DNA of 64,000 bases from Promethearchaeati archaeon SRVP18_Atabeyarchaeia-1 (GTDB lineage Archaea; Asgardarchaeota; Atabeyarchaeia; Atabeyarchaeales; Atabeyarchaeaceae): assembly GCA_037308085.1 (NCBI GenBank), contig CP147779.1, positions 1,984,001-2,048,000 of the forward strand, written 5' to 3'. Positions 4,391 through 32,004 of the stretch are shown here, piece after piece. The notes beneath the pieces are model-generated. The model was not told where the DNA came from. It worked only from the letters and a program-made list of their open reading frames with translations, and did not search any database. The first letter of the stretch is position 1; the number at the start of each line of letters is the position of its first letter. Position numbers and translations under genes: made by a program.

Positions 4391-4418
4391 ATTGCGTATA
4401 AGTCGGTTTTTGTGAGGG
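4391..4418 (+). repeat. dif-like Xer site, copy 1
   Basis: ATTGCGTATAA-GTCGGT-TTTTGTGAGGG. Confidence 0.7.
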
Positions 4419-4660
4419 ATCATCGTAACTCCCTGGAAGACAGATTTACGCCATTCATACGCTCCAGAAATTGCGCTAGTAAGTAGAGATTGTTCCCTCA
4501 GAGGGATCCAACTTGAATGGGTCCTCGAAGTACTCCACTGGAGTCTTTCCAGTCGACAGTTTGTGAGTTGCCGTTTTTGGGTAAGTTTTAAAAGGTTCAG
4601 AAAACCTCATAATATACGATTATCATCTTGGTTTTGGCGTTCCGTTTGTGGGGTGTGAGT

Positions 4661-6103
4661 ATGGTTTCGGGTCTTGTTATTGCGAAGGGCGAGACTGAGC
4701 TGGCTCTGCTGCCTTCGATGGCTAACAGGCATGGTCTGGTTGCAGGAGCCACGGGAACTGGAAAGACGGTGACCCTGCAGAAGATTGCTGAGAAGTTGAG
4801 TGGTATAGGAGTTCCAGTCTTCATGGCTGATGTAAAGGGAGACCTTTCAGGGATCAGCCAGGCAGGCGGCAGTAATCCGAAAGTTGAGGACAGGATAAAG
4901 ACTCTGCAAATCAAGGGTTTCACGTACGAGAGTTATCCTGTTGTTTTCTGGGACGTGTTTGGGCAGAGCGGCCATCCGATAAGGACCACAATAAGCGAAA
5001 TGGGGCCGCTGCTCATTAGCAGACTGCTGGGCCTCAATGATGTTCAGGAAGGCGTGCTCGCGACCGTCTTCAAGATTGCTGATGATAACGGATTGTTGCT
5101 CCTCGACTTGAAAGACCTCAGGTCTATGCTGCAAAATGTCGGGGACAATGCCAAGGTTTACACTACACAGTATGGGAACATTCCAACGGCAACCGTAGGC
5201 ACAATCCAGAGAGGGTTGCTTGAGCTTGAGCAGCAGGGCGGGGACAAGTTCTTCGGAGAGCCTGCTTTCGGTATAAACGATTTGATAAGGGTTGAGAACG
5301 GGAAAGGCGTTGTGAACGTACTGGCAGCAGACAAGCTCATAACCTCTCCAAAGGTCTACTCGACCTTCCTCCTCTATCTGCTGTCAGAGCTTTTCGAGCA
5401 GCTGCCGGAAATAGGAGATGTGGAAAAGCCAAAGCTTGTCTTCTTTTTTGATGAGGCGCACCTGCTTTTCAATGACGCGCCGAAGGCCCTGATTGAAAAA
5501 GTACAGCAGGTTGCCAGACTCATCAGGTCAAAGGGGGTTGGCGTCTACTTCATAAGCCAGAACCCCATGGACGTGCCTGAAATCGTTCTGGGGCAGTTGG
5601 GAAACAGGGTGCAGCACGCGCTCAGGGCATTCACGCCAATTGACCAGAAAGCGGTCTCTTCTGCAGCAAAGACCTTCCGGCCTAACCCGAAGATAAAGAT
5701 TGAGCAGGCAATCACTGAACTGGGTGTTGGGGAAGCGCTTGTCTCCTTCCTCGATGAGAAGGGCCAGCCAGGAATTGTCCAAAGGGCATTTGTTATCCCG
5801 CCAGGGAGTAGGATAGGCCCGATTACGCCGCAGGAGAGATCTGCCATCACTTCAAGGTCTGCTATGGCTGGGAAATACGAAAAGGCAATTGACAGGGAAT
5901 CCGCTTATGAGGTGCTACAGAGAAAGGCCCAGCAGGCTGCCCAGCAGGCTGCGAAGCCCGCAGCAAAGGCCGCTCCAAAAGGAAGGCAACAAAAGAGCGT
6001 TATGGATGCCGTGACCAAGAGCTTCGCTACCAGCGCGAGCCGGCAGGTTGGGAACCAGATAGTCCGAGGGCTACTTGGCTCCATTTTTGGGAAGAAGAGA
6101 TAA
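4661..6103 (+). CDS. DUF853/YjgR HerA-like ATPase
   Basis: [16 protein letters not shown] Walker [44 protein letters not shown] 4661 preferred over TTG 4628. Confidence 0.9.
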
Positions 6104-6115
6104 TCCATAGGATCT

Positions 6116-6159
6116 GGGGCAAGGAGACACCCGTCTTCAAACCGGGTAGGAATTGCCCC
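6116..6159. mobile_element. IS200/IS605-type end hairpin remnant
   Basis: GGGGCAA...TTGCCCC flanking ACCCG-TCTTCAAAC-CGGGT. The minus strand reads CAATTCCTACCCGGTTTGAAGACGGGTGTCTCCTTG, resembling IS605-group subterminal hairpins. Confidence 0.5.
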
Positions 6160-6330
6160 ACTCTCTCCGCGGATTTCCTAATCTCCGGAGATGACTTGCA
6201 TGTTTGCCGTCGCTTTTCCCGATCCAGAAAGACGTAGATGGGTCTAAGCTTCTTCTCGGTTCTCATGCACCAGTCCGATTTTCCTTCAAGGCTTCTCAGG
6301 TCATCGGCTTTTGCGTGGCTGGTAGCCGAG

Positions 6331-6358
6331 GATACGTATAAGTCGGCTTTTGTGCGGT
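6331..6358 (+). repeat. dif-like Xer site, copy 2
   Basis: GATACGTATAA-GTCGGC-TTTTGTGCGGT. Confidence 0.7.
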
Positions 6359-6532
6359 ACTCCCTGCATTTCAGAGTTGGCGTGCATCACCGAAAGTTCG
6401 GTCGAGAAAGCCAAACCAGACATCAAGGCACTGCAAAGGAGCGGCGCCGACTCGAGACGTAGCACGCGTCAGCCATTGCATCTTGAAAAAAGAAGTTGCA
6501 GCCGAGGGTATTGGCCCCCAGCTCTGAATTCT

Positions 6533-7966
6533 TCAGCCTTTGCGTTTCCGGATCAGCAATGCAGCGACTCCCATCGTTGCAAACCCAGCGACAAACCCGA
6601 CAGCGAGGCCGTAGATCGTTATGACTACTGGAACTCCAGCCGTTCCCGGAACATACGTGCTGTTGAACAGCTCTCCGATCTGTCCGCTTCGATATTCAGT
6701 GAACCAGACATGATATGGATTGCCTGACTGGATATCTATAGACAGAGGCAGCGCTTGTGCAGTCGGAACTGTGTATAGGAGGATCGTTCCGGTGAATGTC
6801 GGCGATGGTCCGGGCTGAATTACTCCTATGTGGTTGTAGAGCGGCTCTGTAAACCACGCGTAGCCATCGGCGCTGGCGGCTATGTCCCACGGTCTAGCTG
6901 GCGGCGGAACATAGCCTACTGCCGTCACGGTGGTCGGAATACTCCATACAACAAAAGGATCGCCTGTAACATTGAGTGGACCAGCGAACGCAGTGGGCGC
7001 TACTGCAGCGAACTGGATGGTAATATTCAGTGTCTTAGGATTCAAAGTCGCAGGTTCTAGTGGTAGAGTTGCCGTAGTCATCGATATGCTATAGGAGGAC
7101 TTGTTTGCGCTGCCGGCAAGCTGCTCATCGACCAGTGAGCTGAGCGGCTGAGTAACCCAAACATTATCTGCTGTATCGACATCCAAATCCCATGTATACC
7201 CTGGTTTAGTCAAAGGATAACTCAGAGCACTCGGCGCTAGAGGTAAGGGTATCTCATAGAGTCTGTCATACATGATATCTGTTATGAAGAGGCAGGTTCC
7301 GTTAGTCGTTATCCTCGTCGGGAAAGCAGCCGAAGAGCCCGTTGGCAACTTCATTGTATACATGAAAAGTGCACCAGTGGCCGGCACCAATTGGTAGAAT
7401 TGTGTTCTGTTGATGCCTGTAAACCAGACACTCCCTGACTGCAGAACAAGGTCTAGCGGCTTTACGTTAAGGTTCACCAAGCTGTAGTCAACCAGCTGGC
7501 CTGTGACCCAATTCAAGCTGCTGATCATAAAGCTCGTCGGGTTAGTGAACCATACCACTTTTTGCGTCTCATTTACTTTGATGTAGAGTGGAGATCGTTT
7601 CAAACCAGTATCAGGGAGTACCCATTCCTTAGCGGTCGTCGAAGTCTGGGTATCCGTGGTCGCGGGAGTCAATTGGTAGACGACGTCCCTTGCGATGTCG
7701 GTCACCCAGCTATAACCATTGGAGTCGTAGGCAATACCGAAAGGCGTGCGGGCAGGGCCAAGGTATGCTATAGTAGTAAGCGGTATAGCCGGCAGAAGAT
7801 ATTCCCGAATCAGCGTGGTCAGGGGAGGATCCGGGGACCGCTGCACTGATGGCATCTGTGTCACACTTGCACCAGGAACACTAGTTGTCGCTGACTGCGG
7901 CAATACGAAGATGCTGATAGATAGGAGAAGAACAAGCATTACGCAGAAAGAATTCCTCGTTGACAT
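6533..7966 (-). CDS. Secreted, membrane-anchored Vgb-lyase/NHL-like beta-propeller protein
   Basis: Signal peptide, repeated P-x-x-I-A...V-W-F-T-E blades (PWDIAASADGYAWFTE, HVWFTEYRSGQIG), C-terminal TM followed by RKRK. Confidence 0.75.
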   Translation of the reverse strand: MSTRNSFCVMLVLLLSISIFVLPQSATTSVPGASVTQMPSVQRSPDPPLTTLIREYLLPAIPLTTIAYLGPARTPFGIAYDSNGYSWVTDIARDVVYQLTPATTDTQTSTTAKEWVLPDTGLKRSPLYIKVNETQKVVWFTNPTSFMISSLNWVTGQLVDYSLVNLNVKPLDLVLQSGSVWFTGINRTQFYQLVPATGALFMYTMKLPTGSSAAFPTRITTNGTCLFITDIMYDRLYEIPLPLAPSALSYPLTKPGYTWDLDVDTADNVWVTQPLSSLVDEQLAGSANKSSYSISMTTATLPLEPATLNPKTLNITIQFAAVAPTAFAGPLNVTGDPFVVWSIPTTVTAVGYVPPPARPWDIAASADGYAWFTEPLYNHIGVIQPGPSPTFTGTILLYTVPTAQALPLSIDIQSGNPYHVWFTEYRSGQIGELFNSTYVPGTAGVPVVITIYGLAVGFVAGFATMGVAALLIRKRKG

Positions 7967-8393
7967 CTCCCACGTTTCACTCCTTGCTCCCTCAGTTTCT
8001 TTACAGATAGTCCGTATATATGATCAATACTAGTATATATCCACCCTCCCCCCCGGGCGGAAGTGTTAAGTGAAGGATGAGCAGAGTTTCAAGGTCTTCA
8101 AAGAACTCAGGAAGACCCCGCACGTTGTTCTCAGAGACGAGGAGAGAAAGCTAGTCGACATACTGAGTAAGGAACTGAGGCTTAATCGACTTTCGGTGTA
8201 GTTTGCTTGGTGCATCAGATCCAGTCCGAGATTAGATTCATGCGTGATCGTAAGAGGGTCCTCTCGTGAGAAATTACACATTTCGAAAATACAGCGGCCA
8301 ACGCGGATCTTCGCATCCACTGTCAAAATAGCTAGCATTGCGGACCCTCAAGGCATCTTTATATCCCATTTTTCTGCCGAACTTGAGACGTAC

Positions 8394-8421
8394 ACTGCAT
8401 ATAACTCGGCTTATGTGAAGC
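8394..8421 (+). repeat. dif-like Xer site, copy 3
   Basis: ACTGCATATAA-CTCGGC-TTATGTGAAGC. Confidence 0.75.
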
Positions 8422-8564
8422 CAACCCCGCTATTCCAAGCCTGCTTAGCATTAGGGTGACAGCTTGCGAACACACTCATTACTGTCATATCAGATTGATT
8501 ATCCGGATGCGTCGTCGGCCTGCATGGTATAGCTTAGCGCGCGAAAACGAAAGAGGCGGGTTTG

Positions 8565-11081
8565 TTAGAGGCTTCCGAATTCCGCGCGGGCTATTATGTC
8601 GTCCTGTATTGGCTTCCCGAGATCTGTGAAGTAGGCGCAGTAGCCGGATACTCTTACCACCAGGTCTCTGTATTTTTCTGGGTTTTTCTGGGCGTCTCTC
8701 AAGGTTTGGCTGTCCACGACATTTAACTGGACTTGGCTTCCCCCCAATTTGAAGTATGCTCTGATCAGACTGGCCACCTTCTGTCTCCTCTCCTCATCTC
8801 TGAGTAGCATGGGAAGCATTTTGATGTTCAGTGAGCAGCCGTTAGCGATTTTTGTATGTTCAATCTTTGAGCACGATTTTAGTATGGCTGTTGGTCCGTT
8901 TTTTTCAGCTCCGTTACTTGGGGACAGGCTGTTTGATGTTGTTTCTCCAGCTTTTCTTCCGTTGGGTGTTGCTCCAAGTAGGTTCCCGTCTAGGACGTGA
9001 AGTCCATATGAGAAGAATGAGGCTCTGTAGGGTCCTCCTCTCCAAGCCTTTTTACTTGTTACCATGTCGCAGAATGTTCCCGCGATTTCTCTGGCTATCC
9101 AATCGGCGTAATCGTCGTCGTTTCCGTATTTTGGAGCCCTGTTTATTAGTATCTGACGCAGCCTTTCCCTCTTCTCTCCTCTAAAATTGTTTTCTAGTGC
9201 GTCTATCAATTCACTCATGGTTACGGTTTTGTCGTCGAAAACCACTTTTCTTATTGCAGCTAGGGAATCAACTGTTGTGCCTAATCCGCGTCCACTTATA
9301 GAGTTAAAATTGTACCTCGCTCCTCCACTGGTCATATCCATGGCGTTTTCCACGCAGCCCTCAAGCGTGGCTGAGATGTAAGGATTAGGAAACATCTTGT
9401 CGTAGACCTCGTCCTTAATCTCCACCAGCTGAGATATGACGTCGACGCTGTGCTGAAGCTGTTTCTTGAAGGCATCCATTACCTCTTCGAATGTTCTGAA
9501 TTCCCTCGGATCCCCGGTGTCTGCTCCGGTTCTGCGTCCGAGCATTCTGATCATTCCGTTGGTGAGCATCATTTCCAGAATACCCACCAGCGATATGTCG
9601 TTTCCGCTGGTGCACCCGAAGGTGTTTCCGGCGCTTGTAGGCTCCACGCATCCGATTACCGCGTAGTCCCAAGCGTCCCCAAATCCTGTTCCATTATTGA
9701 TCAGGGCGGGGATGGTAACATCGTCGTTGTATAGCGCGGGTCCCGAGGTCACGCTGTAGACTTCGGCGATTTTTCGAAGCCACTCCTCGCTGGACTTGCT
9801 TGAAACACGTACAGAGAAGGTGTTGGTGAGATTCTTCATGTTTTTACAAGCATCCATCCACACGTAGGAGAGCTCGTTAGTGGCATCCTCCCCATCTCTA
9901 CCGACTCCCCCAATGGTTAGGGCGTCCTCGTCGGCACCGAGTTCTGAGGCGGTGTGCTTTCCGAAGCTGGGAAGAAGGAGCAGATTGTAGCTGAACTTGA
10001 TTAAAAGCTCTTCCACAAGCTCCAAAGCCTGTTCGCGGGTGATTTTTCCATTTTCGATATCCTTCTTGTAGTAGGGGTAAAGATACTGGTCAACCCGACC
10101 CACGGCTCCAATTAAACCCACACCATAACTTATTGAAGCCATGACTTGGGTGAACCATAGGAACTGGCAAGCTTCGTAGAAGTTTCGAGGTGGATTGCAG
10201 GGAACCCATCTACAGTTTTCAGCCATCTGGAGCAGTTCGGCTTTCCTCTGAGGATTATCTTCTTTCAACGCCATTTCTTCAGCCAACGATGCGAAGCGTT
10301 GACCAAACATTTTTGCGGCGTCGCAGCAGATCATTACGGCATCGAGGAACTTCTTTTTTTCAGAGCCCACGACGGTTTTCTTTATCTCCCGCGCCTTTTC
10401 TTTCACTCCCTTGAACCCTGTTTTGATTACGTTGTTGATACCGATAACCAAATGGCCCTGAACATCAAAAACATTCATCACCAAGTTTGGATTATTAAGC
10501 GTCACCTCATTCAAGCTACTAGATATGTAGCGTAGTCTTCCCCCGGCGTATAACTTCATGATTTTCCACATGTTTTTGAAGCCGAAGTTCTTCAGTCTCC
10601 TCAAGTTGGCTCCAGGGCCGAGGCTGATTCTGAAGTGTAGTCCTCTCTCCTTCATGATCTTGGTTCGGTGGTCCCTTACCGTTTTGCCCTTCCAGTACTT
10701 GAGCGTCTTCCCCAGTTCTTTCTCTTCCTCTCCTGATATGTGGTAGGGGTGGTCCTTCCTATTTTTGAGGTTTTTAAGGTCTGTTCTTAGGACGTAGTTT
10801 AGTTCGCCGCGCTCTATTGGAATAATAGTTGCTACCAGCTTGCTGGAACGGTTTCCCACTATTTGTTCTTCGGGAAGTATGTAGATGGTCATTTTTTGTA
10901 GAGTGTTTTCCAGAGCCTTCGCGGCTCGGATGGCTGGGTGCATACCCTCTGTTTCCTTGTAGGATTCGGTGTAGTACCGGGCGCGCTCTATGCATATTTC
11001 ATAGGGTGCTTCCAGAATCTTTCTTCTATAGATTTGTGTTCTGGAAGGACTGGAGGTTTGGGTTTCCGTAACTTGGACCGT
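8565..11081 (-). CDS. Glycyl radical enzyme (PFL2/dehydratase-like; ~838 aa, probable ACG start at 11081, track start 10943)
   Basis: Cys loop IGCVEP and Gly loop VRVSGY. The conserved N-terminal ICIERARYYTESYKETEG lies in frame upstream of 10943. Confidence 0.85.
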   Translation of the reverse strand, partial: TVQVTETQTSSPSRTQIYRRKILEAPYEICIERARYYTESYKETEGMHPAIRAAKALENTLQKMTIYILPEEQIVGNRSSKLVATIIPIERGELNYVLRTDLKNLKNRKDHPYHISGEEEKELGKTLKYWKGKTVRDHRTKIMKERGLHFRISLGPGANLRRLKNFGFKNMWKIMKLYAGGRLRYISSSLNEVTLNNPNLVMNVFDVQGHLVIGINNVIKTGFKGVKEKAREIKKTVVGSEKKKFLDAVMICCDAAKMFGQRFASLAEEMALKEDNPQRKAELLQMAENCRWVPCNPPRNFYEACQFLWFTQVMASISYGVGLIGAVGRVDQYLYPYYKKDIENGKITREQALELVEELLIKFSYNLLLLPSFGKHTASELGADEDALTIGGVGRDGEDATNELSYVWMDACKNMKNLTNTFSVRVSSKSSEEWLRKIAEVYSVTSGPALYNDDVTIPALINNGTGFGDAWDYAVIGCVEPTSAGNTFGCTSGNDISLVGILEMMLTNGMIRMLGRRTGADTGDPREFRTFEEVMDAFKKQLQHSVDVISQLVEIKDEVYDKMFPNPYISATLEGCVENAMDMTSGGARYNFNSISGRGLGTTVDSLAAIRKVVFDDKTVTMSELIDALENNFRGEKRERLRQILINRAPKYGNDDDYADWIAREIAGTFCDMVTSKKAWRGGPYRASFFSYGLHVLDGNLLGATPNGRKAGETTSNSLSPSNGAEKNGPTAILKSCSKIEHTKIANGCSLNIKMLPMLLRDEERRQKVASLIRAYFKLGGSQVQLNVVDSQTLRDAQKNPEKYRDLVVRVSGYCAYFTDLGKPIQDDIIARAEFGSL

Positions 11082-11243
11082 TTTTGATCTCCCCTTGAAC
11101 CTCTTAGGTTAACAACATCGTTTAAGAATATTAGCTTTTGTTTATGCAAAAGCCATGCCCAGTGGGGGTCAACCAACCATTAGAGTTTTCAGAAGAGATA
11201 GCGGGATTTTTTCGAAGAGAAACGTTCAGCAGAGAGGAGATTT

Positions 11244-11426
11244 ATGGGTAAAGAGATTTCTTGGAAAAATAAACTCGTTTTCGGTGATTGTCAGAATATG
11301 CAGGAATTGGAAGATAGTAGCGTTCATTTGGTGGTTGCTTCTCCATATTCTAACGCTCCTTTTGATTATCCGGACCTTTTTGAGAGTTATGGAAAGGGTT
11401 CGGAACTGTTCGGATGGACTGTATAA
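11244..11426 (+). pseudogene. N-terminal fragment of a beta-class DNA methyltransferase
   Basis: KLVFGDCQNMQELEDSSVHLVVASPY matches the GDC...VHLVVTSPPY start. The motif is degenerate and the ORF ends at 60 aa. Confidence 0.6.
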
Positions 11427-11452
11427 ATACGTGTAATCACATGTAAGACAAT

Positions 11453-12835
11453 ATGGAAGGAGAACTACGGGATGGAGAGCTTCACCCGGGCAGCCTGCGG
11501 ATCCTGGCGGTCGCACGTGAAGAGGCAGCCACCCACCGGGGGCACCACAGGTGGAAGGCGAGGGAAGGAGAAAAGAGAACCATCACGGTCGGATACGAGC
11601 CCTCCGCAGCAACACTCAGATACCTTGAGGACATGAGGGACGCGCTGACGGGCGCTGTCGCCCACGCATACGCCCTTGCCAAGACTGGTGGCCTGCTCCC
11701 GAGCCCAGTGGCGCTGAGGAGGAGGGTGAAGCCCTGGTTCGACGCCCACTACGACTACGCGAGGCACCACGTCAACCCTGTGTGCAGGACTGCTGTATCA
11801 CTGCTCAGGTCGTACAGGAAGAGGCACCACGAGCTCGCAATGCCCCGGGTCAGGAGGCTAGCCATGAGGATCGACTCCGAACTCTTCCGCGTCCTGGAGA
11901 AAGATGATGGAACCGTGACTGTGAGGGTGACGCTGAAGCCCTTCACCTACGAGACCATCACCTTCACTCCAAGCCACAGGAAGTGGAGCGAGTACAGCAG
12001 GGGAGCAGTGAGCGAACTACTGCTGACTGACAGGAGGCTCTGCGTAACCTTCATCGTGGGGCCTGATGGCGACGGCGGAAAGCCTCTCGGCGGGAGACTC
12101 GCAGGCTCAGACCTCAACTTCCGAAGCATAGACTCCACAGCGTTCAGAGGTGGCAAGCTGGAGCCACCCTGCACTGAGCCTCTCAACAAGATAGTGCAGG
12201 TTCAGAACGATTTCTCAAGGAGGCGAAGGAGACTCCAGCTACACATCAGGAACCCAGAGAAGAGAGCAGCGAAGCTCGCTGAGACAGGGGGCAGGCAGAG
12301 GAACAGGGTCCGGGACGAGCTCCACAAGCTCTCAACCAGGATCATCGGGGAGAACCCTGGCACCTCATTCATCTTCGAGGACTTGAGGAACATCCGGGGA
12401 AAGGGGGAAAGGAAGAGGAAGAAGGCGAGCAGGAAGCTGAGGACGTACCTGAGCCGATGGCCCTACAGGATGTTCCAGAGCATGGTCGAGTACAAGAGCC
12501 GATGCAGGACGATTTACGTGAGCCCGAGGGGGACCTCCACGGAGTGTCCCGTCTGCGGTGGAAAGTTAGAGCACCCAGCTTGGGCCATATCGAGATGCAA
12601 AACCTGTGGCGTGGACTACCAGCGGGATAGGCTCGCCTCGCTGGCGATACTCCGCCGTGGTCTGCGCCTTTGCCGCTACCCGTTTACGGTGAGTGCGGGC
12701 GCCTCTTGGCAGCAGATGAGGGATGAATACCTGTACGCCCCCGGAGAGCCGAGGCCGGGAGAACAGGCTGGACCAGATGCCGCCAACGCTCCGAATAGAA
12801 ACGCGGAAAACTTCCATGGTTTTCCACATTTCTAG
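11453..12835 (+). mobile_element. tnpB: IS200/IS605/IS607-family TnpB RNA-guided nuclease
   Basis: RuvC-I GSDLN, RuvC-II FIFEDL, TSTECPVCG...CKTCG Zn finger, RuvC-III QRDRLAS. GC is higher than in the flanks. Confidence 0.85.
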
Positions 12836-13065
12836 AAACGGTTGATCACGTCGTTGTTTCTTGTCCTATCGGAGGTAATGTTGAATGGATCTACAGCGAA
12901 GTCAACACGGGGACAGTAGAGATTTCTAGTGACTATGTCTTTTGAGTTCTTAGCGATACTCCATTCAGGAACCACATTGTTGTTCCCGAAGATGCGATCC
13001 AGGGACCTCAGGATCTCGCTATATTCGCTAACGTCAGGTTGCACCAAACCAGAGAGATTGGTCAT
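12832..13065 (-). pseudogene. Truncated hypothetical protein, possibly the N-terminus of a PD-(D/E)XK nuclease
   Basis: 77 aa ending at the TnpB stop. The VPEW...YCPRVDFAV pattern resembles a nuclease motif II. Confidence 0.35.
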
Positions 13066-13162
13066 GGTGGAGCAGGCATAGCCTTTCAGACATATTAGTA
13101 CTCTTGTTGCTAAAGGATTGGAGGACGCTTATGCGCGTTATTTGTTTAGAGCTTTTGCTTTG

Positions 13163-13190
13163 CCTTCGAATAAGTCGGCTTATGTGAAGC
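13163..13190 (+). repeat. dif-like Xer site, copy 4
   Basis: CCTTCGAATAA-GTCGGC-TTATGTGAAGC. Confidence 0.75.
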
Positions 13191-13364
13191 CGTACGAGAG
13201 GCTCGTCTAGGGGTGACGAAGCCAGAAGCTTGACAAGATGGCGTACCTCAATGTGTGGCTGAGATTCGTGTCTTCTTAAGCTACAGATACCAAGAAAAAC
13301 TTAAATGCAATCATAATAGCTTCCTATCCAAGCTGCCTCAGCCAGGAGAGGGGATGTAGCGAGT

Positions 13365-14174
13365 TTGGTTCTCGGCTTGATTGACTGGATCGCAGTTAAT
13401 TGGCTCGCCATTATCGGTCTTGTATCCACTTTTCTTTTCGGACTTCTTGCAGTAGTGTTTTACTATAGGAGTAAGAAGAATAAATCTCCATCCTACGCTA
13501 TTCGTAGCACAAATCTCGTGAGAGATCTGATCAGCAAATTCGAACACCTAGAAGTTCGGTACCGACGCCAGCGACTGGCGAACATGACTGTGACAAAGAT
13601 CGTGTTCTGGAATGCTGGCCGCGATACAATTCAAAGGGGAGACATCGCGTCAGCAGAGCCTGTGGCAATATACGCGCGTGAGCGTGTCAAGATACTTGAC
13701 GCGAGAATAGTTCAATCTGTTGAGCCAGCAAACAAATTCGGTCTCGCCGTGACTGAAAACCATTCCCTTGTCAGAATCGGATTTGAGTACATTGACAAGG
13801 GCCAAGGAATAGTTCTGCAGACACTTCACACGGGACAGTCAAGTCAAGATATTGATGTCCGCGGAAAGATAAAGGGAGCCGGGGGCCTGGTCAGAAGGCG
13901 CGTCCAGCGTCCTCCAGATCTCTCCTCCATACCCTTTTTTGGCAAACGATTGTCAGCGAAGCAACGGCGATACGTTACGGCGATAGTTTTCTCACTGATT
14001 CCTGTTGTCCTGGTACCTCTTGGATATTTCTCGTGGCTCCCCACTGAATTGGATTTTCGTTTCTACTTTTTTGTAGCCTTCTTCGGCGTATTTACGATCT
14101 TGTGTTGGTCGATAGCCCTCTCTACCTTGAGAAAAAGGTTACCTGATAAACTGGAAGTCTTCTGGGAAGACTGA
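13365..14174 (+). CDS. Membrane protein (1 N-terminal TM, soluble beta domain, 2 C-terminal TM)
   Basis: Hydropathy pattern of the 269-aa ORF. Confidence 0.65.
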   Translation: MVLGLIDWIAVNWLAIIGLVSTFLFGLLAVVFYYRSKKNKSPSYAIRSTNLVRDLISKFEHLEVRYRRQRLANMTVTKIVFWNAGRDTIQRGDIASAEPVAIYARERVKILDARIVQSVEPANKFGLAVTENHSLVRIGFEYIDKGQGIVLQTLHTGQSSQDIDVRGKIKGAGGLVRRRVQRPPDLSSIPFFGKRLSAKQRRYVTAIVFSLIPVVLVPLGYFSWLPTELDFRFYFFVAFFGVFTILCWSIALSTLRKRLPDKLEVFWED

Positions 14175-14639
14175 TATTACCTGGAGTTCATGCTGATATG
14201 ATCTGGATGTGACCGTCTTCTCAGCGAACTAATGACAGTGCATAATTCCGCAAGCCTTCATTCTCGTGGCGAAACAAGCAACAACTGATCTATCGTATTC
14301 CAAGCTCATCTAAGAGGACAAGTGACTGATACCTGGGTACGTGCGATCAATGCATAGGAAGAGAAGTCAAACCACCTTTTCCAAGACCTATTCCGTCATA
14401 TCATGGGACATTTCCATAATCGCATGTTTATCGATGGTGTGCACGCAAGTCAGCCTGTGAGTATTCCCGCGCGGTACTGGGTAAAAGTGAAGATCCTCCA
14501 ACCAGTCCGCGGAAGAACGCTGGGGCGAATGAGACTTCACGCGATACACGTGAACCATCAGACCACTCCAACGATCAATCTCAGGAATTCGTTAACAAAC
14601 ATTTTTGGATCTTGGAAGCTATTCGGTTCAACCTATACT

Positions 14640-15149
14640 TCAACTGTCTCTACCATAATGCCTTTCCAGAAAGTAAGCAAGGAACCAAGCACTGAAGTAG
14701 ATGAGGGCGGCATAATCATACTTGTTCTCCGGAGGAAATGCCTGTGGCAAAATCAGATAGAGAGGCCAGACTATAATATAGAAAACCGCGAGGGGGGTCC
14801 CCGCGATTGCCAGTGTCCTTAAGCCCGAGTGAACCACGAAATGCGAGAACCCACAATTTCTAGTCCACGTTGCTTTCAATATTCCCCTGTACTGTGAGTT
14901 AAGATAATCAAAAATGATGCAGAATGAAAAGAAAACGAATGCCGCGACTGGGATGATTGACACTATCTGACCCCATGGCGGATAATATACATGAGATGGT
15001 AGGAACTCTGCATTGAGCCTACTAAACATCAGAGTGAAGAATACCCCAAATACGGTCACTATCAATACTGGTTCATAGTCTGTCGGATCTTTTTCCTTTG
15101 CCTTGTGATTTGCGGGCATACCGTTACCCCCTATTACCCTTCTCCTCAC
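14640..15149 (-). CDS. Membrane protein of unknown function
   Basis: About 4 hydrophobic segments. Confidence 0.5.
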   Translation of the reverse strand: MRRRVIGGNGMPANHKAKEKDPTDYEPVLIVTVFGVFFTLMFSRLNAEFLPSHVYYPPWGQIVSIIPVAAFVFFSFCIIFDYLNSQYRGILKATWTRNCGFSHFVVHSGLRTLAIAGTPLAVFYIIVWPLYLILPQAFPPENKYDYAALIYFSAWFLAYFLERHYGRDS

Positions 15150-15318
15150 CGAGTGCAGTTTAACCTAACTCCCTTATAAGTTTGTGGTGAATTGTCAAAT
15201 CTATTAGACATGGCGCTAAGGAAGAAGCTAGAGGTTGGGGAGCAGGGGAGAAGAGCAGAGGGAATTTGGCTGACTTGGACTTTGAGATATAGCAGTAAGT
15301 CATTTGAAATGTAGATTG

Positions 15319-15346
15319 GTTTCACCTTATTCGGCTTAAGTGAGTC
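15319..15346 (+). repeat. Degenerate dif-like site, copy 5
   Basis: GTTTCACCTTA-TTCGGC-TTAAGTGAGTC. The TCGGC spacer and TTAxGTGA arm are retained. Confidence 0.35.
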
Positions 15347-15410
15347 AGTTGAGCCACAGGTGGAGAGTCGAAGACAGTTACCCAGGCTACAGGAATCACT
15401 TTCCTAGCTG

Positions 15411-20369: not shown

Positions 20370-20909
20370 CTAATGTCTTGCGTCAAGGAACCGCAGAATT
20401 TCTCCCACAATCGCGTCGAGATGGTCTGGATCTCTTATCTCGGTAATCACAGCCTTACCAGATGCAAAAAGCAGAACGGTAATCTCTGGTAGTTCAGCCA
20501 ACTTGCAGATCGCCCCGGGGAACTGCTCAGGCTCATAGACAACCTCACCAGACTTCTTGGCGAGCTCATTCAGATCCAGAGTCCTCCCGAAATCCACGGT
20601 CGCGACAGCATTCCTAACCCTCATACTAATAGGAACGAACTTGGCTAGGCCTGCTTCAGCGAGGATATGTATTGCTGACTCCAGATCGCTAGTCGCTTCC
20701 CTACTGCTTCTGGTTCCAACGCTGATCATCTTGCCGCTGGAAAAGATTGTTACTCTACCCTTCATGGCTGGAGCCTTCAGATACGCTACGCGCCCTCCAT
20801 AGTACATGTCATCGTGTAGGCCGTACTTCAGATCGCCAATCTTATCCAGATCCACATTCTGCTTCAATTCGGCTGTAGCAACTACATTGACAAGATTCGC
20901 TTCGACCAT
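20370..20909 (-). CDS. tbp: TATA-box-binding protein paralogue
   Basis: Two TBP repeats: NVVATA...IFSSGKMISVG and NAVATV...YEPEQFPGA...LLFASGKAVIT. Confidence 0.85.
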   Translation of the reverse strand: MVEANLVNVVATAELKQNVDLDKIGDLKYGLHDDMYYGGRVAYLKAPAMKGRVTIFSSGKMISVGTRSSREATSDLESAIHILAEAGLAKFVPISMRVRNAVATVDFGRTLDLNELAKKSGEVVYEPEQFPGAICKLAELPEITVLLFASGKAVITEIRDPDHLDAIVGEILRFLDARH

Positions 20910-22625: not shown

Positions 22626-23970
22626 TCAGAGGCAGACGCTATTCTCCTGTGTATCGCTGTGAGATCCTCTGGAGGGCAGCTTCTTCTGAAAATCGTATAC
22701 CGTAACTAGGTAGTTTGGAGAAACCATCTTAGCAAGTCTCTCGCTTGTTCTCGGTTCAGTGTATCTGTCTAGAGCTTGGAAACCGAGTGCTGCAAGGATT
22801 CCTACGCCCGGCAGCGCAGATGCAAGCCCACCAATGAGTCCTATGAGCGCAGATACTCCATACGATATGAAGCCTCTCTTGTGGCTGATATTCCTCGCAT
22901 CTCTCCAGATGCTATCAAGGATAGTCGATAACTCATGGCTGTTCTTCTCGACTACGTCAATTCTCCTTCCTTTTACCCCGCTAGGGAGTGCTTCTGTAAC
23001 TCTAAGCAACTGGTGGTCTTCATAGTCTTGTATCATTCTGCAGCAACTCTCGAAGGTCGTTGGATAGTGAATCACTTTGTTTAACACGAATCTGCCTATC
23101 TCATACACACTATCATCCGGTGTCCTCAAGTGATGTCTACCCAGGGTCCTTCGCATACCAGCCAGGAATTCTAGCCTGTAGTTGACGGTCAGTTTAAGTG
23201 GATCGACCGCTGGATAGTACAGACACCCAACAGCGACAAGCAAATCTAGCGCGTGGGTCGGATCATCAACGATCGCTTCTGTTACTTCTTCGATCAGTTT
23301 CTTGCTTCCGAACGACTTGGCTAGACTGTAGTATACGCGGTAATTGTGGATGATTCTGTCGGGTGGATACCATTTGGCTTGCTCCGAGCGCTCTATTTCC
23401 TGCTGAAATCCCAGGCCTGCCAATGTGTCGAATTCAGCCTGCCAATGTGTCGAATTCAGTGAAGTATTGCTTGACTCGCTTGGGTTTGAGGAGTACAGCG
23501 AATGAAGTAGGGGCGATTGGAGGCTTCAGCTCTTCAAAAAGGGGTCTGAGAAATTCAAGACTCTGATATCTTGTTGGCCGTTGAGTAAGAACAAACTGCA
23601 GTCTACCCGTTTGTTTGACGAAATCAATCAGTCTGTCAAGATCCTTGGATGTAAAGCCCGTTTCGCGATAAAGGTTGTCAAAACTCCTCCTGTCATTAGT
23701 TGGCTCTAATTGAATGACTGTTGAACCGTAGAAGGGGATGACACCCCACATTGAGAGACCGATGTTAATCCCTGCCAAGTGCTCCCTTGCATTTATGAAT
23801 CTCGCTAAGGGCGGGTATCTCTCAATCATACCTTTCTTGGCTTTTACCAAGAATCTGTCTAACTCTTCCTTCTCTCTATTGTCATAATCCAGGAGGAAAT
23901 CGTTGAATTCATTCATTTCATTCACCAAATGCTCTCGTTGATTTGTCCTTGCTATCGGTAACTGCCTCAA
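22626..23970 (-). pseudogene. Hypothetical ~440-aa gene frameshifted by a 22-bp tandem duplication
   Basis: GCCTGCCAATGTGTCGAATTCA occurs at 23415-23436 and 23437-23458. Removing one copy joins ORFs 23434..23970 and 22626..23423. Confidence 0.75.
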
Positions 23971-26938: not shown

Positions 26939-28347
26939 GCGAAGTCGTGACGAAACTATGGGGATTCTGCAACACCCTAAGGCACGACGGCATAGGATAC
27001 GGCGACTACATCGAACAGCTAACATACCTGCTCTTCCTGAAACTCGCCGGAGAGAAAGGAGTAAAACTCCCAGGAGGCTGCACATGGAAAGACCTCAGAG
27101 CAAAATCAGGATCAGAACTACTCGACGCCTATATCGAAATTCTGCGCACCCTCTCAAGACAGAAGGGGATGCTCAAAGACATTTTTTCCGGCTCATTGTC
27201 AAAATTCCGAGAACCAGTGAACCTCAAACGCTTAATCGGACTCATAGATGAAACACAATGGACCGCGCTAGATGTCGATATCAAGGCACAGGCGTACGAA
27301 GGGCTCCTCCAGAAATATGCCTCTGAAGAAAAGGGAGCTGGACAGTATTTCACCCCTCGAGAAGCTATAAGGTGTGTGATTCGTTGCATAAGGCCAGATA
27401 TCATGGAAAAACCAGACTTCTCAATACATGATCCCGCCTTGGGCACTGCGGGTTTCCTGATCGGCGCGTATGAATGGATGATGGCTGAGACAAAGGAGGG
27501 AGCCCAACTTAGCAGGGAGGAACGGGAGCGTCTGCAGAAACATACATTCTCTGGATGCGAAATAGTCCAAGATACTCGTAGACTGGGACTCATGAACCTT
27601 TATCTGCATGAAATCGAAGCAGACATCTACTATGGAGACGCTCTAGCTGAAGGCCCCCACCTGTCAAAACGACACGATTGCATAATGACGAACCCACCAT
27701 TCGGGACAAAGGGTGCAGGAGAAATCCCCGTCCGTGAAGATTTCACGGTCAAGACGTCGAACAAGCAAATTAACTTTCTTCAGCATGTCATCATATCTCT
27801 GAAGCCTGGCGGGAGGGCGGCGATTGTGCTGCCAGATAACGTCCTTTTTGAGGAACATGCCGGTAGGCAAGTGAGAAAGCTTCTTCTGGCTGATTGTGAA
27901 CTCCACACAATTCTTAGACTGCCGATAGGCACGTTCACACCCTATTCATCGGGCGTCAAAGCTAACATCTTGTTCTTCCGCAAAGGCTCACCTACAAAAG
28001 AGATCTGGATCTACGACCTTCGAACCAATACTGAAAAGGTAACGATACGACATTCGCTGACCGCGAACTACTTCATGGATTTTGAAGCATGCTACAGCAT
28101 GAATCCGCGTAAGGAAACTGAAAGGTTCAAGCGATTCAGAGTCGAAGACATAATCAATCGGAACTATAGTCTTGACATTTCATGGCTGAGAGATGCGACT
28201 TCTGAGGATCCAACGAATCTTCCTGATCCTGAAGACTTGATTGGCGAAGCTTTAACGACTCTTCAAGTAGCTGTGGACGCTCTGACAGAACTGACCGCTA
28301 ATCTTGGTAGGAATAGTGCTAAGAACAAGGTCGAAAGAAATGGATGA
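26935..28347 (+). CDS. hsdM: Type I R-M methyltransferase subunit
   Basis: GAGQYFTPR, DPALGTAGFL, TNPPFG. 4-nt overlap with hsdR. Confidence 0.95.
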   Translation: MSEVVTKLWGFCNTLRHDGIGYGDYIEQLTYLLFLKLAGEKGVKLPGGCTWKDLRAKSGSELLDAYIEILRTLSRQKGMLKDIFSGSLSKFREPVNLKRLIGLIDETQWTALDVDIKAQAYEGLLQKYASEEKGAGQYFTPREAIRCVIRCIRPDIMEKPDFSIHDPALGTAGFLIGAYEWMMAETKEGAQLSREERERLQKHTFSGCEIVQDTRRLGLMNLYLHEIEADIYYGDALAEGPHLSKRHDCIMTNPPFGTKGAGEIPVREDFTVKTSNKQINFLQHVIISLKPGGRAAIVLPDNVLFEEHAGRQVRKLLLADCELHTILRLPIGTFTPYSSGVKANILFFRKGSPTKEIWIYDLRTNTEKVTIRHSLTANYFMDFEACYSMNPRKETERFKRFRVEDIINRNYSLDISWLRDATSEDPTNLPDPEDLIGEALTTLQVAVDALTELTANLGRNSAKNKVERNG

Positions 28348-29836
28348 GATATCGGAGAGATTAACGGACGAGAAAAGCGGCTCAGTTGACTTGCCCAAAG
28401 GCTGGATTAGAGTTTCTTTGGGAGACTATGTTTTCATTGCAGCCAGAATCGGATGGAGAGGTTTGAAGAAGAGTGAATACCTAAAAGAAGGACCACTATT
28501 CCTGGCGGTCAAGGACATTCGAGAGGACGGAACAATAGACTGGGATGGTATCACAGACCATCTAAATGATTTCAGATATTCTGAGTCCCCGGAAATACAG
28601 TTGAAAGATCATGATGTACTTGTCACAAAGGATGGAACGATCGGGAAAATAGGTTTCCTAGAAAGCGTTCCCTCCAAGGCAACAGTGAATTCCTCCATTC
28701 TGGTTGTGCGACCTTGTCTAGGGATTTTGCCAAAATTCCTGTTCTACTATTTTAGGGGTCCAGAATTTCAGGATATAGTTGAAGAAAAGGTTACCGGCAC
28801 TGCAGTGCCACACTTGTTCCAACACGACATTAAGAGATTTCAGCTAAATGTACCTCCCTTCGTTGAGCAAAAACGAATAGTCGCCAAAATCGAAGAACTC
28901 TTCCAAGAACTCCGTTCATCGGAACAGGGAGTCTGCAAAGCTATGCTTCTGGTGAAGCGATTCCACCAGTGGGTTTTCGAAGCGGCAGTTGTTGGAGAAC
29001 TTACGGCGGAGTGGAGGGAAGCTCATAAGAGTGACTCTGAATCAGCATCAGTTCTTCTCGAGAAGATAAGGGAGAATCTGAAAAGTGGTCTCGGCTCAAG
29101 GCGCGCGGAAAAGCCTCTAAGAGAAATAGAGTTACCTCGGCTCCCGGAATGTTGGGCATGGACGACAGTAGGTGACATTTCAGAGATGGCTCAGTATGGA
29201 TATACCTCAAGTTCCAGCTCAGACCCCATTGGACCGAAGATGCTCAGAATAACGGATATCCAACACGATACTGTAGACTGGAGAGCTGTGCCATACTGCA
29301 GGATAGCAGATCAAGAGAAGCGGAAATTCCTGCTAGGCGAGGGGGATCTTGTTTTTGCGAGAACTGGGGCAACGGTCGGAAAGAGTTATCTCATTAAAGG
29401 CGAAATACCCGAGGCCATCTTCGCTTCGTACCTTATCAGAGTCGTAATTTCCCGTCTCATTAACAAGGAATTTGTCTACTATTTCTTCCATTCCGATATG
29501 TACTGGTCGCAGATACGAGCGAGGCAAGTAGGGACCGGTCAACCCAATGTGAATTCCCGGATGTTATCAGAAATAAACCTGCCCTTGCCGCCGCTTCCCG
29601 AGCAGCAGGAGGTGGTGCAGATGGTCAAAAGCTACCTGTCAATGGTCCAAGAAATTGAGAGGAACATTGGTCTCGCCCTTCAACACATAGAGAAAGCACG
29701 GAAAAGCATCCTGAAGAGTGCGTTTGAAGGCGGACTGGTTCCCCGTGACCCAAGTGATGAACCGGCTTCGATTCTATTGGAACGAATGAAGGCTAAACGT
29801 GCAGCCAGCAAAAAGAGGGATATTTCCTCGAAATGA
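28340..29836 (+). CDS. hsdS: Type I R-M specificity subunit
   Basis: Two TRDs (LPKGW..., LPECWAW...) with PPFVEQKRIVAKIEE and PPLPEQQEVV spacers. ATG 28340 overlaps the hsdM end. Confidence 0.93.
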   Translation: MDEISERLTDEKSGSVDLPKGWIRVSLGDYVFIAARIGWRGLKKSEYLKEGPLFLAVKDIREDGTIDWDGITDHLNDFRYSESPEIQLKDHDVLVTKDGTIGKIGFLESVPSKATVNSSILVVRPCLGILPKFLFYYFRGPEFQDIVEEKVTGTAVPHLFQHDIKRFQLNVPPFVEQKRIVAKIEELFQELRSSEQGVCKAMLLVKRFHQWVFEAAVVGELTAEWREAHKSDSESASVLLEKIRENLKSGLGSRRAEKPLREIELPRLPECWAWTTVGDISEMAQYGYTSSSSSDPIGPKMLRITDIQHDTVDWRAVPYCRIADQEKRKFLLGEGDLVFARTGATVGKSYLIKGEIPEAIFASYLIRVVISRLINKEFVYYFFHSDMYWSQIRARQVGTGQPNVNSRMLSEINLPLPPLPEQQEVVQMVKSYLSMVQEIERNIGLALQHIEKARKSILKSAFEGGLVPRDPSDEPASILLERMKAKRAASKKRDISSK

Positions 29837-30381
29837 GGGCGGCAGCCTTATGAAGAGACTAAGAGGAAAGACAGGCAGAACGCACAAGCCTATGAGGCAA
29901 GCGGTATTGTTTGAAATGAGGCACACTCTCGACAAGTCGATTTGCCCCAGACAAACTTGGTGGTTGGAGTGCTGTCGAACAGAGGCTACGCAAGATTGCT
30001 AGAATGCCTTACTGGGATTAGGATGTCTTCGCCAGCGTCGGTATTTTATCGGTTGCACCTTTTCTGTCTCGGATCTTAGGGGCAATGGAGCTCTCTCGAA
30101 TAACTACTTCTGATTAACGAAGGCTACCGTCTTTAGGACTAGGGGAAAACTGGAATCTCAGCGCAGATGTTCCAAGCTATCCTCAGTACATGATTTGCTT
30201 GGAACAGATAATCGCTGGGTGTGTATGCGCTTTCCAAAGGCGGGTGAACTGCAATTCGGATCATTATCAAATCGTCAATGGAGCGAATTCACTCGAGGAC
30301 CATGCCTAATTATTGTGGTGATGATAGGGGTCTTTTTAATCCTTGAGGGTTACTCCCTGATGGTAGCTGGGATCTAGATGG

Positions 30382-30861
30382 TTGAAAGGAAAGGTGGATG
30401 TAGCCTTGCTCACAGAAGAAGAGAACGAGTGGCAAGTAGCCGACGATTTGAAGGAAGCCCGAATGAAGCGGTGGCAGGAGTGGTCTCGAGCCCACAAGAA
30501 GGAACGAAGCGAGTACAGCAAAGTCCAGAATATGAGGCAGCGTGATGAGGTTCATGAATGGCTTGGTGGCAGTTGTTTTGTCTGTGGCTCCAGAAATGCA
30601 TTGGAGATTCATCATCTGCGCGACAGACATGGAACGGCTAGCCGGGTCTTCTCAATCTCGGAGGCGAGAAGGAATCCTAGAGGGCTTGTGTTGCTGTGTT
30701 TCAAACACCACAAGGTTATCCACGCAGGCAATCTCAAGTCCTACAGACTGCTCAAATGGCTCTTCGAAGTGGCCAGAGCATCTTCATACCGCATGAACCT
30801 GCGCGAGCTGCTACCAAAGCAAATCGGAAAGCGAAGTCGCACACAGGTCTTCAGTACTTGA
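30382..30861 (+). CDS. HNH endonuclease-like protein
   Basis: CFVCGS...LEIHH...LVLLCFKHHKVIH. Confidence 0.65.
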   Translation: MKGKVDVALLTEEENEWQVADDLKEARMKRWQEWSRAHKKERSEYSKVQNMRQRDEVHEWLGGSCFVCGSRNALEIHHLRDRHGTASRVFSISEARRNPRGLVLLCFKHHKVIHAGNLKSYRLLKWLFEVARASSYRMNLRELLPKQIGKRSRTQVFST

Positions 30862-31080
30862 AATCCACCAAGGAAGCCAGCTCTTTCCCCGAATGCTTCC
30901 GCGCCTGGAGTGTCCCACCCTCGAAGACGTCTACCCAGCGATCGCCTATTTAAATAGCCTAACAGCTATTCAACCCTGCCCGACCGAAGCTTCCAGAAAT
31001 CGCAACGCATTTGTCTTCTTCATGATGCGTGGAATGCCCCCAAGTGCATATCGTATAATGCCTCCAATACCGTCTACGTC

Positions 31081-31953
31081 TCATGTTCTGATCAGGCCTA
31101 GGCGTGCCAGTTCTTCTTCGGTGTCTCGCATGTCTATTGCCTCGTATATTGCAGTTGTGTCTCGGTTCTTGTGGTGTAGTAAGTTCTGCAGGTATTCCGT
31201 TCTGACGTTTCTGCGTCTCATGGCGACAGCGAATGTGTGTCTCAACATGTGTGGTGAGATCCTCTTGGTTATCCCGCCTTTTCTGGCAACCCTTTCTACG
31301 GTGTATTGAAGCCCTCTCCTTGAGAGGTGGATAAGGAGATCGTCGCTTTCGAGTCGTTGCTCTTGGACATGGCGTCTGATGAGTTTCGCCGCGTCTTCGT
31401 CAATAAGGGCGGGGACAATGATGTAGGGGCGTACGGCACCTCGCTTCAGCCTAACATTAAGATGACTGGTTTCGAGGTCGATATCTTTCACCTTCAGACT
31501 GAGAAGTTCTCCCATTCGCATTCCTGTGCTTACGAGCAGGTTGACAATGAGCTTTTCTCTGGGACTTGAAGCTGCGCTTAGGAACCTTTCTTTCTCTTCC
31601 TCGGTCAGGTAGATTGGGTTTCGGGGCGGCCTTGCCATCCTGGCGGTTCTGGGCATGGGGCTCCCGGTGATTCTGCCGCTGTCAACCATGTACTGAAAGA
31701 AGGATGAGAGGCATGCTCTCGTGGCGATTATTGATGATCTCCTGTACGCGTGCTTGTGGACTCTGTCGCCGCTCGGCTTGCTGAGGTATTCTATGAAGGC
31801 TGCCAGGTCCTGCCTTGTGATCTTCTTGATGTTCCTGTCGTCTGCGAGGAAACGCCGGAACATTCCCAGGGTGTATCCGTATTGTTTGGGTGTTAGGTCG
31901 GAGGTGTCTCTGAGCTTGAGCTGACCTAGGAAGGCTTCAATTTCCTGGTTCAT
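31081..31953 (-). CDS. Xer-family tyrosine recombinase
   Basis: 290 aa, N-terminal SAM-like domain, TGMRMGEL (R), SPHMLRH (HxxR), LLHH, TTAIY (Y). Confidence 0.9.
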   Translation of the reverse strand: MNQEIEAFLGQLKLRDTSDLTPKQYGYTLGMFRRFLADDRNIKKITRQDLAAFIEYLSKPSGDRVHKHAYRRSSIIATRACLSSFFQYMVDSGRITGSPMPRTARMARPPRNPIYLTEEEKERFLSAASSPREKLIVNLLVSTGMRMGELLSLKVKDIDLETSHLNVRLKRGAVRPYIIVPALIDEDAAKLIRRHVQEQRLESDDLLIHLSRRGLQYTVERVARKGGITKRISPHMLRHTFAVAMRRRNVRTEYLQNLLHHKNRDTTAIYEAIDMRDTEEELARLGLIRT

Positions 31954-31976
31954 GGGTCTGCAACCCCGTTATTTTT

Positions 31977-32004
31977 GCTTCGCAAAAACTGTATTATGTG
32001 CAGT
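31977..32004 (-). promoter_or_regulatory. dif-like site in the recombinase promoter (inverted, different spacer)
   Basis: Minus strand ACTGCACATAA-TACAGT-TTTTGCGAAGC, between a TATA-like CTTAAATAG (~32021-32029) and the ATG at 31953. Confidence 0.75.

Follow-up and report, generated by a model that had tools for sequence, protein, structure and literature searches.

How does the chromosome of an Asgard archaeon come to carry a row of short, directly repeated sites that resemble dif, the target of Xer recombinases, with unrelated genes between them? The question is raised by a stretch of 64,000 nucleotides (positions 1,984,001 to 2,048,000 of contig CP147779.1; hereafter the window, whose coordinates are used below unless genome positions are stated), in which a first-pass annotation had described a cassette array of 28-bp dif-like sites next to a Xer recombinase and had likened it to pdif modules, to integrative mobile elements exploiting Xer (IMEX) and to integrons. 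The source genome is a single contig of 2,808,651 bp and almost certainly belongs to Atabeya-1, the Asgard archaeon Candidatus Atabeyarchaeum deiterrae-1, described previously (PMC11291895, PMC11529989). For comparison we used the complete sister genome of Candidatus Atabeyarchaeum deiterrae Atabeyarchaeia-2 (CP147780.1; hereafter Atabeyarchaeia-2), which belongs to the same family, the genome of a sister species of the source organism (G001), and a metagenome contig related to the same lineage (L082; 74-89% nucleotide identity to scattered parts of the source genome). As set out below, the array sites are very probably targets of the XerA recombinase, judging from their sequence, and the balance tips modestly towards the intervening genes being modules that XerA inserted at dif, with the other sites as hybrid scars of these events.

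Four of the repeats form the core of the array. All lie on the plus strand, with site 1 at 4391-4418 (ATTGCGTATAA-GTCGGT-TTTTGTGAGGG, 35.3 bits), site 2 at 6331-6358 (GATACGTATAA-GTCGGC-TTTTGTGCGGT, 33.3 bits), site 3 at 8394-8421 (ACTGCATATAA-CTCGGC-TTATGTGAAGC, 38.1 bits, the highest score) and site 4 at 13163-13190 (CCTTCGAATAA-GTCGGC-TTATGTGAAGC, 35.7 bits). The scores come from a 28-nt weight matrix, for which ten composition-preserving block-wise shuffles of the source genome served as background; the four sites reach 33-38 bits, and nothing in the ten shuffled genomes reaches 27 bits. Their 17-nt core, ATAASTCGGYTTWTGTG, matches four times in the window against 0.04 expected (0 of 100 shuffles reached four), and perfect matches across the whole genome number exactly four, all of them at the array sites. 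A repeat finder ranks the four sites as the top direct-repeat family of the window, the gene calls place every one of them between genes, and their shared orientation is kept regardless of the direction of the neighbouring genes. The four direct intergenic copies of the first-pass annotation are thus confirmed in coordinates, sequence and strand. A fifth, degenerate copy that it had added at 15319-15346 (plus strand; GTTTCACCTTA-TTCGGC-TTAAGTGAGTC) is indeed present at the array end, but scores 18.0 bits, and about 2.4 matches of at least 18 bits are expected by chance per genome. This copy is therefore only marginally supported, chiefly via its position, and may be the decayed end of the array.

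The anatomy of the repeats is that of dif. In each, a 6-bp spacer separates two arms of 11 bp that form an imperfect inverted repeat; at 8394 and 13163 the inner arm positions read ATAA-N6-TTAT and the two arms match each other at 8 of 11 positions, and at 4391 and 6331 they read ATAA-N6-TTTT with an arm-to-arm match of just 4 of 11 (site 1, for example, has a fair left arm and TTTT instead of TTAT as the inner core of the right one). The ATAA-N6-TTAT frame and a TCGG-containing spacer are common to the array sites and the experimentally validated dif of Pyrococcus abyssi (ATTGGATATAA-TCGGCC-TTATATCTAAA; PMC2958812), which bears out the earlier assignment of the repeats to the dif type. The spacers, described previously as near-identical, run GTCGGT, GTCGGC, CTCGGC, GTCGGC and TTCGGC along the array, with an invariant TCGG core and an outer position at which neighbours differ. 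When array-type sites were collected from the source genome (five), Atabeyarchaeia-2 (three), L082 (three) and G001 (one), spacer positions 2-5 were TCGG in 12/12, with both arms recognisable in most sites and variable in sequence. A spacer conserved above the arms is what recombination among the sites would demand; binding alone needs no such conservation.

Could the motif instead have nothing to do with Xer and act as an operator for some transcription factor, belong to a promoter or terminator, or mark the end of a transposon? All copies are intergenic, sites 1 and 2 carry short T-runs, and a TnpB element lies inside the third module, all of which such an origin would accommodate, but we give it very little credence. 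The motif keeps one orientation whatever the direction of its neighbours, and site 2 sits between convergent genes, which excludes a promoter role there. A matrix scan of the genome found the motif absent from other promoters, with the perfect core at the four array sites only, and a half-site scan of the whole genome returned nothing but scatter at the chance level. The sequence shared among sites ends at ~25-28 bp, except for a short ACTCCCTG downstream of 4391 and 6331, and no hairpin ends, extended palindrome, attC-like fold or conserved flanks were found around them; TnpB copies elsewhere lack the motif, and the exact ATAA-N6-TTAT dyad is that of dif. In view of the fixed orientation, the position and a similarity that ends so soon, we reject the promoter, terminator and insertion-sequence-end readings. 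Scanning of the window for Rfam families and tRNAs gave no match, so there is no tRNA-type att site.

If the sites are dif-like, which of them is dif? Only site 3 (8394) among the array sites satisfies a strict two-arm pattern, CAYAYAA-N6-YTATG, scanned across the source genome; two further matches have unrelated spacers and occur at about the control rate, and a second arm-pair scan agrees on site 3. Against consensus half-sites drawn from the Atabeyarchaeia-2 site CGTGCACATAA-CTCGGC-TTATGTGCAGT (positions counted by hand), site 3 matches at 16/18 positions and the other sites at 12-14; the arms of that Atabeyarchaeia-2 counterpart are themselves symmetric at 9/11 positions. The remaining sites decay in an ordered manner around 8394, since those to its left have a weak right arm (TTTT for TTAT) and those to its right a weak left arm (CCTTCGAATAA, then GTTTCACCTTA), while the right arm of site 4, together with one extra base, is identical to that of site 3. 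In the source genome, the angular distance between site 3 (genome position 1,992,394) and the best orc1/cdc6 gene (0.639 Mb) is 173 degrees; in Atabeyarchaeia-2, that between the counterpart site (2,014,532) and orc1 (0.640 Mb) is 179 degrees. We consider it very probable that the chromosomal dif is among the array sites. With two good arms, the spacer CTCGGC and a distance of ~173 degrees from orc1/cdc6, site 3 is likely the live dif at which chromosome dimers would be resolved, with the terminus itself inferred from the orc1 antipode. In contigs of Bathyarchaeia and Thermoplasmata, stretches of 8-10 kb each hold a lone site with the same core and palindromic arms, and scans of genome and metagenome collections with a 20-nt pattern found, outside the lineage, only lone sites per contig and no further arrays.

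The recombinase expected to act on these sites is encoded by xerA (31081-31953, minus strand), a 290-aa XerA-like tyrosine recombinase with the PF00589 domain. The source genome encodes four PF00589 proteins, three of which are open frames of 441-468 aa, leaving the fourth as its sole Xer-sized tyrosine recombinase. Its top family is NCBIfam XerA_Arch (183 bits; cut-off 220), the nearest solved structures are those of XerA from Thermoplasma acidophilum (5HXY) and P. abyssi (4A8E), and its catalytic R, H-x-x-R, H and Y align with both. The first-pass claim of a Xer recombinase beside the array therefore holds for the enzyme but not for its adjacency, as xerA lies 17.9 kb from the nearest strong site and 15.7 kb from the marginal copy at 15319. 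Around the XerA-like genes of seven other Asgard genomes no repeated ATAA-N6-TTAT was found; those recombinases are just ~30% identical to the present XerA, and the negative accordingly carries little weight.

A further dif-like site, which the first-pass annotation had listed as an inverted copy, lies 23 bp upstream of the xerA ATG (31977-32004, minus strand; ACTGCACATAA-TACAGT-TTTTGCGAAGC). Its 20.3 bits are not significant by score alone, but in all three genomes compared (3/3) the start of xerA is preceded, at 23-35 bp, by a conserved dif-like site, namely here, in Atabeyarchaeia-2 (2,039,652-2,039,679; ACTGCACATAA-TACATC-TTATGTGCAAT, with perfect arms) and in G001 (contig C180, about 1,510-1,540; GGCTCGCATTA-TACATC-TTATGTGCAAT). 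The arms of these xerA-proximal sites are of the array type, whereas the spacer, TACAGT or TACATC against NTCGGY in the array, forms a different class, so the inverted copy is dif-like and positionally conserved without being one more member of the array. Because of this spacer difference, exchange between 31977 and the array is unlikely. The xerA-proximal site may serve as an autoregulatory operator or, by analogy, may be a second resolution site or second class of dif; difSL lies beside xerS in streptococci (PMC5357621), and the haloarchaeal dif lies upstream of the xerA operon (PMC11840125).

The conserved site next to a recombinase gene, together with a row of mostly single-gene modules between recombination sites, recalls integrons, including those of archaea (Ghaly et al. 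2022, PMC9668308), in which case the xerA-proximal site would be an attI-like primary insertion site and the array its cassette store. We consider this very improbable. The xerA-proximal spacer differs from that of the array at most positions and the site is inverted; between it and the array lie 15.7-17.9 kb of defence genes, among them those for type I restriction-modification; and the array genes point in both orientations. The array sites are double-strand, 28-bp sites of the 11-6-11 dif type, with neither conserved flanks nor an attC-like fold or Rfam match, whereas integrons use folded attC sites of 57-141 nt. On the enzyme side, the integron-integrase profile TIGR02249 scores 87.7 bits against the 290-aa protein (cut-off 265; best stretch, profile positions 6-172), and profile PRK15417 and IntI4 (2A3V) match only its C-terminal 65 residues; since these matches cover only other parts, the region of the additional IntI domain is left unmatched and no IntI-specific domain is recognised. 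The integron analogy offered by the first-pass annotation is accordingly not upheld.

The DNA between consecutive sites holds cargo of unrelated kinds, as had been noted from the sequence and as our Pfam assignments of the encoded proteins confirm. Module 1 (4419-6330, plus strand) carries a single gene, 4628-6103, for a DUF853/HerA_C ATPase with 64-69% identity to proteins named as bacterial. Module 2 (6359-8393, minus strand) carries a gene for a Vgb-lyase-like beta-propeller (6533-7966), a homologue of which stands in G001 within a block syntenic with the 1.87 Mb region of the source genome, where it is without sites. Module 3 (8422-13162) comprises a gene (8565-10943, minus strand) for an orphan glycyl radical enzyme (GRE) that belongs to a set of five paralogues and has no activase next to it, and an inserted TnpB copy of the IS200/IS605 type (11394-12843, plus strand; approximate bounds, set by the limits of similarity to copies in G001) that is unrelated to the dif-like sites. 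At 847 aa, the open frame of this GRE extends upstream of its first ATG (10943) into sequence that matches the N-terminus of the family but offers no ATG, GTG or TTG start (10644-11111, minus strand), which means that either the start is non-canonical or the 5' end is damaged. Module 4 (13191-15318) contains two genes (13365-14174, plus strand; 14640-15119, minus strand), both of which encode small predicted membrane proteins with three hydrophobic segments apiece and no Pfam match. Modules are mostly single-gene, measure 2-5 kb and carry genes in both orientations; no PF00589 integrase was found inside them (Pfam search of the module genes, genome 1,988-1,999 kb), and they hold cargo genes only, with none of the phage, plasmid or island functions of an autonomous or mobilisable element.

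Comparison with the relatives places these modules in a highly variable region. To the right of xerA, the source genome and Atabeyarchaeia-2 share homologous genes, whereas to its left synteny is lost; the nearest shared block on that side lies at 1,972,347-1,974,585 in the source genome and 2,005,817-2,008,055 in Atabeyarchaeia-2, and the sequence between this block and xerA (40 kb and 31 kb, respectively) is unrelated. The array thus lies inside a 40-kb hypervariable, defence-rich island of which xerA is the right border. In Atabeyarchaeia-2, a CTCGGC site is followed 9.6 kb on by a GTCGGC site with orphan genes in between; the same pair of spacers in the source genome (8394 and 13163) is 4.8 kb apart and encloses the GRE gene and TnpB, so that the cargo between equivalent sites is wholly different in the two genomes. 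On L082, three direct sites are 1.0-1.2 kb apart with single genes between them; they have near-identical left arms and CTCGGC spacers, and a proper right arm is found in the last site only. This one-arm-degenerate series is an IMEX-like pattern, of the kind known from bacteria.

These observations suggest a mechanism in which the sites are targets of the single XerA of the host and in which small circular modules, lacking a recombinase of their own, would each carry one dif-like site. XerA-mediated crossover in the 6-bp spacer between such a circle and the chromosomal dif would generate two hybrid sites, comparable to attL and attR, of which the one keeping two good arms would stay active and the other would be crippled. 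Repeated insertions would shift older modules outward, so that modules would accumulate in tandem to the left and right of the live dif at 8394; this two-sided model fits because arm decay mirrors across 8394, affecting right arms to its left and left arms to its right. For tyrosine recombinases, a difference between spacers should hinder complete strand exchange. The outer-spacer differences and weak arms may in this way guard the array against deletion by XerA, and the hindrance from mismatched spacers and weak arms would explain why the array persists. In vitro, XerA needs no FtsK-like activator (PMC2958812). That XerA binds the sites and integrates the modules, in what order this happened, and that differences in arms and spacers stabilise the array are all inferred from the sequences.

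Among known systems, the array works most like IMEX with gene-sized modules. IMEX form tandem arrays at dif, have one-armed secondary sites and depend on the Xer machinery of the host (PMC5357621). In both cases the DNA that has been inserted at the chromosomal dif, or here putatively so, lies between direct dif-like sites, the elements lack a recombinase of their own and depend on host Xer, and secondary sites retain one arm and the spacer while the other arm diverges; here the TCGG spacer core is invariant and the right arms of 8394 and 13163 are identical. The differences are an archaeal host whose one XerA is not under FtsK control, modules of 2-5 kb that mostly hold one gene and lack phage, replication or transfer functions, and putative insertions that appear to lie on both sides of the live dif. 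The IMEX comparison made in the first-pass annotation therefore carries over for the sites and for the dependence on a host enzyme, but not for element functions. The parallel that it drew with pdif modules fails. The pdif modules of Acinetobacter are plasmid-borne, and their sites alternate in orientation, XerC/D then XerD/C. The array shares with them small modules of one to a few genes, 28-bp Xer sites, unrelated accessory cargo and a lack of mobility genes, but its sites are all direct and lie on a 2.8-Mb chromosome near the presumed terminus. The array is thus neither an integron nor a pdif array.

Compared with the XerA/dif systems of other archaea (P. abyssi, Thermococcus kodakarensis, dif1 and dif2 of T. 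acidophilum, the double dif of Sulfolobus solfataricus and the haloarchaeal dif), the likeness extends to a single XerA, a 28-bp 11-6-11 site, ATAA/TTAT inner arms and a TCGG-containing spacer, and there are precedents both for two sites per genome and for a site beside xerA. What sets the present locus apart is four to five direct copies with cargo between them, such that the source genome holds multiple copies of a site expected to be single-copy, and a second spacer class at xerA.

These precedents also nourish the most serious competitor of insertion at dif, according to which the sites do bind XerA but are not scars of mobile elements, being duplicated or relic dif sites or architectural sites of the terminus, with ordinary variable-island genes between them. 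The XerD-binding sites (XDS) of Bacillus subtilis, at which XerD unloads SMC, and the non-recombining dif1 of T. acidophilum are possible parallels for an architectural role. T. acidophilum has two XerA-binding sites of which only one recombines, and there is precedent for XDS and for domain boundaries associated with dif (PMC11840125); in S. solfataricus, a single locus holds dif in duplicate (PMC2958812). The terminus-like position of the array and the lack of junction variants in assemblies also speak for this explanation, which we nevertheless regard as unlikely. XDS keep the half-site needed for binding and leave the spacer and second arm free, whereas here it is the spacer that is kept most, outconserving the arms in 12 sites from 4 sequences (12/12 TCGG), and the xerA-proximal sites combine arms of the array type with another spacer. 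From one genome to the other, equivalent sites enclose entirely different cargo, the one-arm-degenerate series of L082 has the signature of integration, and in T. kodakarensis the boundary near dif is independent of XerA and dif (PMC11840125).

Several results weigh against XerA-mediated insertion of the modules. The public assemblies, queried with the exact GRE, DUF853, propeller, left-flank and module-4 proteins, returned Logan contigs from four wetland runs, all of them 100% identical to the reference arrangement and with no alternative junction, whether from excision or from a circle; contig ends fall in the multi-copy TnpB, and one falls 9 nt past site 8394, away from the predicted branch point. 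The strain is present in runs SRR28200043, SRR29366204, SRR29366194 and SRR29366192. No virus or plasmid with the site or the cargo was found: 27 core-motif matches in viral contigs are at the chance level and have inconsistent arms, and two module proteins of Atabeyarchaeia-2 have no viral relatives. By Pfam, genes for replication or transfer are lacking from the modules, whose GC content does not stand out; the DUF853 gene has an 81% relative (L137) that is not flanked by sites. The cumulative GC skew and the most skewed 4-/5-mers of the source genome reach a minimum at ~0.2 Mb, which is not at orc1, and a plateau at 1.37-2.28 Mb, leaving the terminus unplaced by skew. The XerA score falls below the NCBIfam cut-off, and the xerA-proximal site could, by analogy with haloarchaea and streptococci, be the true dif instead of 8394. 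If 31977 were the real dif, the array would still consist of XerA sites, and another account of its origin would be required.

The surrounding island has features of its own. In the source genome it holds, besides the array, genes for a UvrD-nuclease, a DNA methylase, type I restriction-modification and a TATA-binding-protein paralogue, as well as a NurA-HerA-SMC-like operon. The left part (window 1-3762 and up to 14 kb upstream; genome 1,974,600-1,988,000) encodes a UvrD-PD-(D/E)XK helicase-nuclease and an N6/N4 methylase, along with an operon for a NurA-like protein, a HerA-like protein, a 42-aa peptide, a 644-aa protein with a weak LmuB/SMC-like match and a 298-aa protein; it looks like a candidate defence system, with site 4391 as its right boundary. 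To the right of the array, precomputed gene calls contain the 179-aa TATA-binding-protein paralogue (PF00352; ~20370-20909, minus strand), which adjoins a ResIII/type I specificity fusion gene, and at 23415-23458 a 22-nt unit, GCCTGCCAATGTGTCGAATTCA, is repeated twice in perfect tandem at the junction of two minus-strand open reading frames.

Dif-like sites also occur elsewhere in the two genomes. In Atabeyarchaeia-2, three further sites cluster on one strand at 1,804,738-1,813,729 (locus L034, 9738-18729), ~200 kb from the main array and inverted relative to it; this second cluster adjoins NiFe-hydrogenase genes and encloses a WD40-Roc GTPase-TIR protein and orphan genes. In the source genome, a strong isolated site at 2,232,171-2,232,198 (locus L116, 7171-7198; ACTGAACACAA-CTCGGC-TTATGTGAATC, 27.2 bits) and the cas6 end of a CRISPR-Cas locus are 305 bp apart, and a degenerate copy with the same spacer and a GTGAAGCC tail lies 26.6 kb upstream of the strong site, at 2,205,582; the interval between the conserved genes that flank these sites measures 27 kb in the source genome and 14 kb in Atabeyarchaeia-2. 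A weak site at 1,539,060-1,539,087 (minus strand; GCTGTGCATAA-CTCGGC-TTTTATGATCC), whose 20.9 bits are at the chance level by score alone, has a gene for a 441-aa integrase at a distance of 15 kb, and the GC-skew maximum is ~150-180 kb away.

What would XerA-mediated insertion at dif mean for these archaea? The prior picture is of an archaeal dif as a single-copy housekeeping site, with Xer-exploiting elements documented only in bacteria. A review of archaeal tyrosine recombinases treats dif as single-copy and does not use the term IMEX (PMC8371274), a review of Xer systems gives IMEX for bacteria only (PMC5357621), and a survey of mobile elements in these Atabeyarchaeia genomes, which counts 14 integrated elements in Atabeya-1, does not mention Xer or dif (PMC11529989); our literature searches for archaeal IMEX or dif-like cassettes returned no relevant paper on dif-bounded gene modules. 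Going by their sequence, the dif-bounded gene modules described here would thus be a new form of IMEX or dif modules in archaea. The array also supplies a candidate dif, and hence a terminus marker, for Atabeyarchaeia. More tentatively, and as a possibility that we consider rather doubtful at present, in Atabeyarchaeia and perhaps in many archaea the housekeeping XerA/dif system may double as a gene-capture platform at the replication terminus, at which promoter-bearing circular modules would be inserted beside dif, swapped and lost without a dedicated integrase. If so, this platform would be a functional analogue of integrons and IMEX, and would contribute to the defence and accessory islands of those prokaryotes that are closest to eukaryotes. 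Should XerA indeed insert modules at the present locus, this would account for part of the hypervariable defence island and provide a sequence signature by which modules could be recognised in other archaeal genomes. It would also offer Asgard archaea a simple, recombinase-free route of horizontal gene gain, with the near-bacterial DUF853 ATPase and the orphan glycyl radical enzyme as examples of what was gained.

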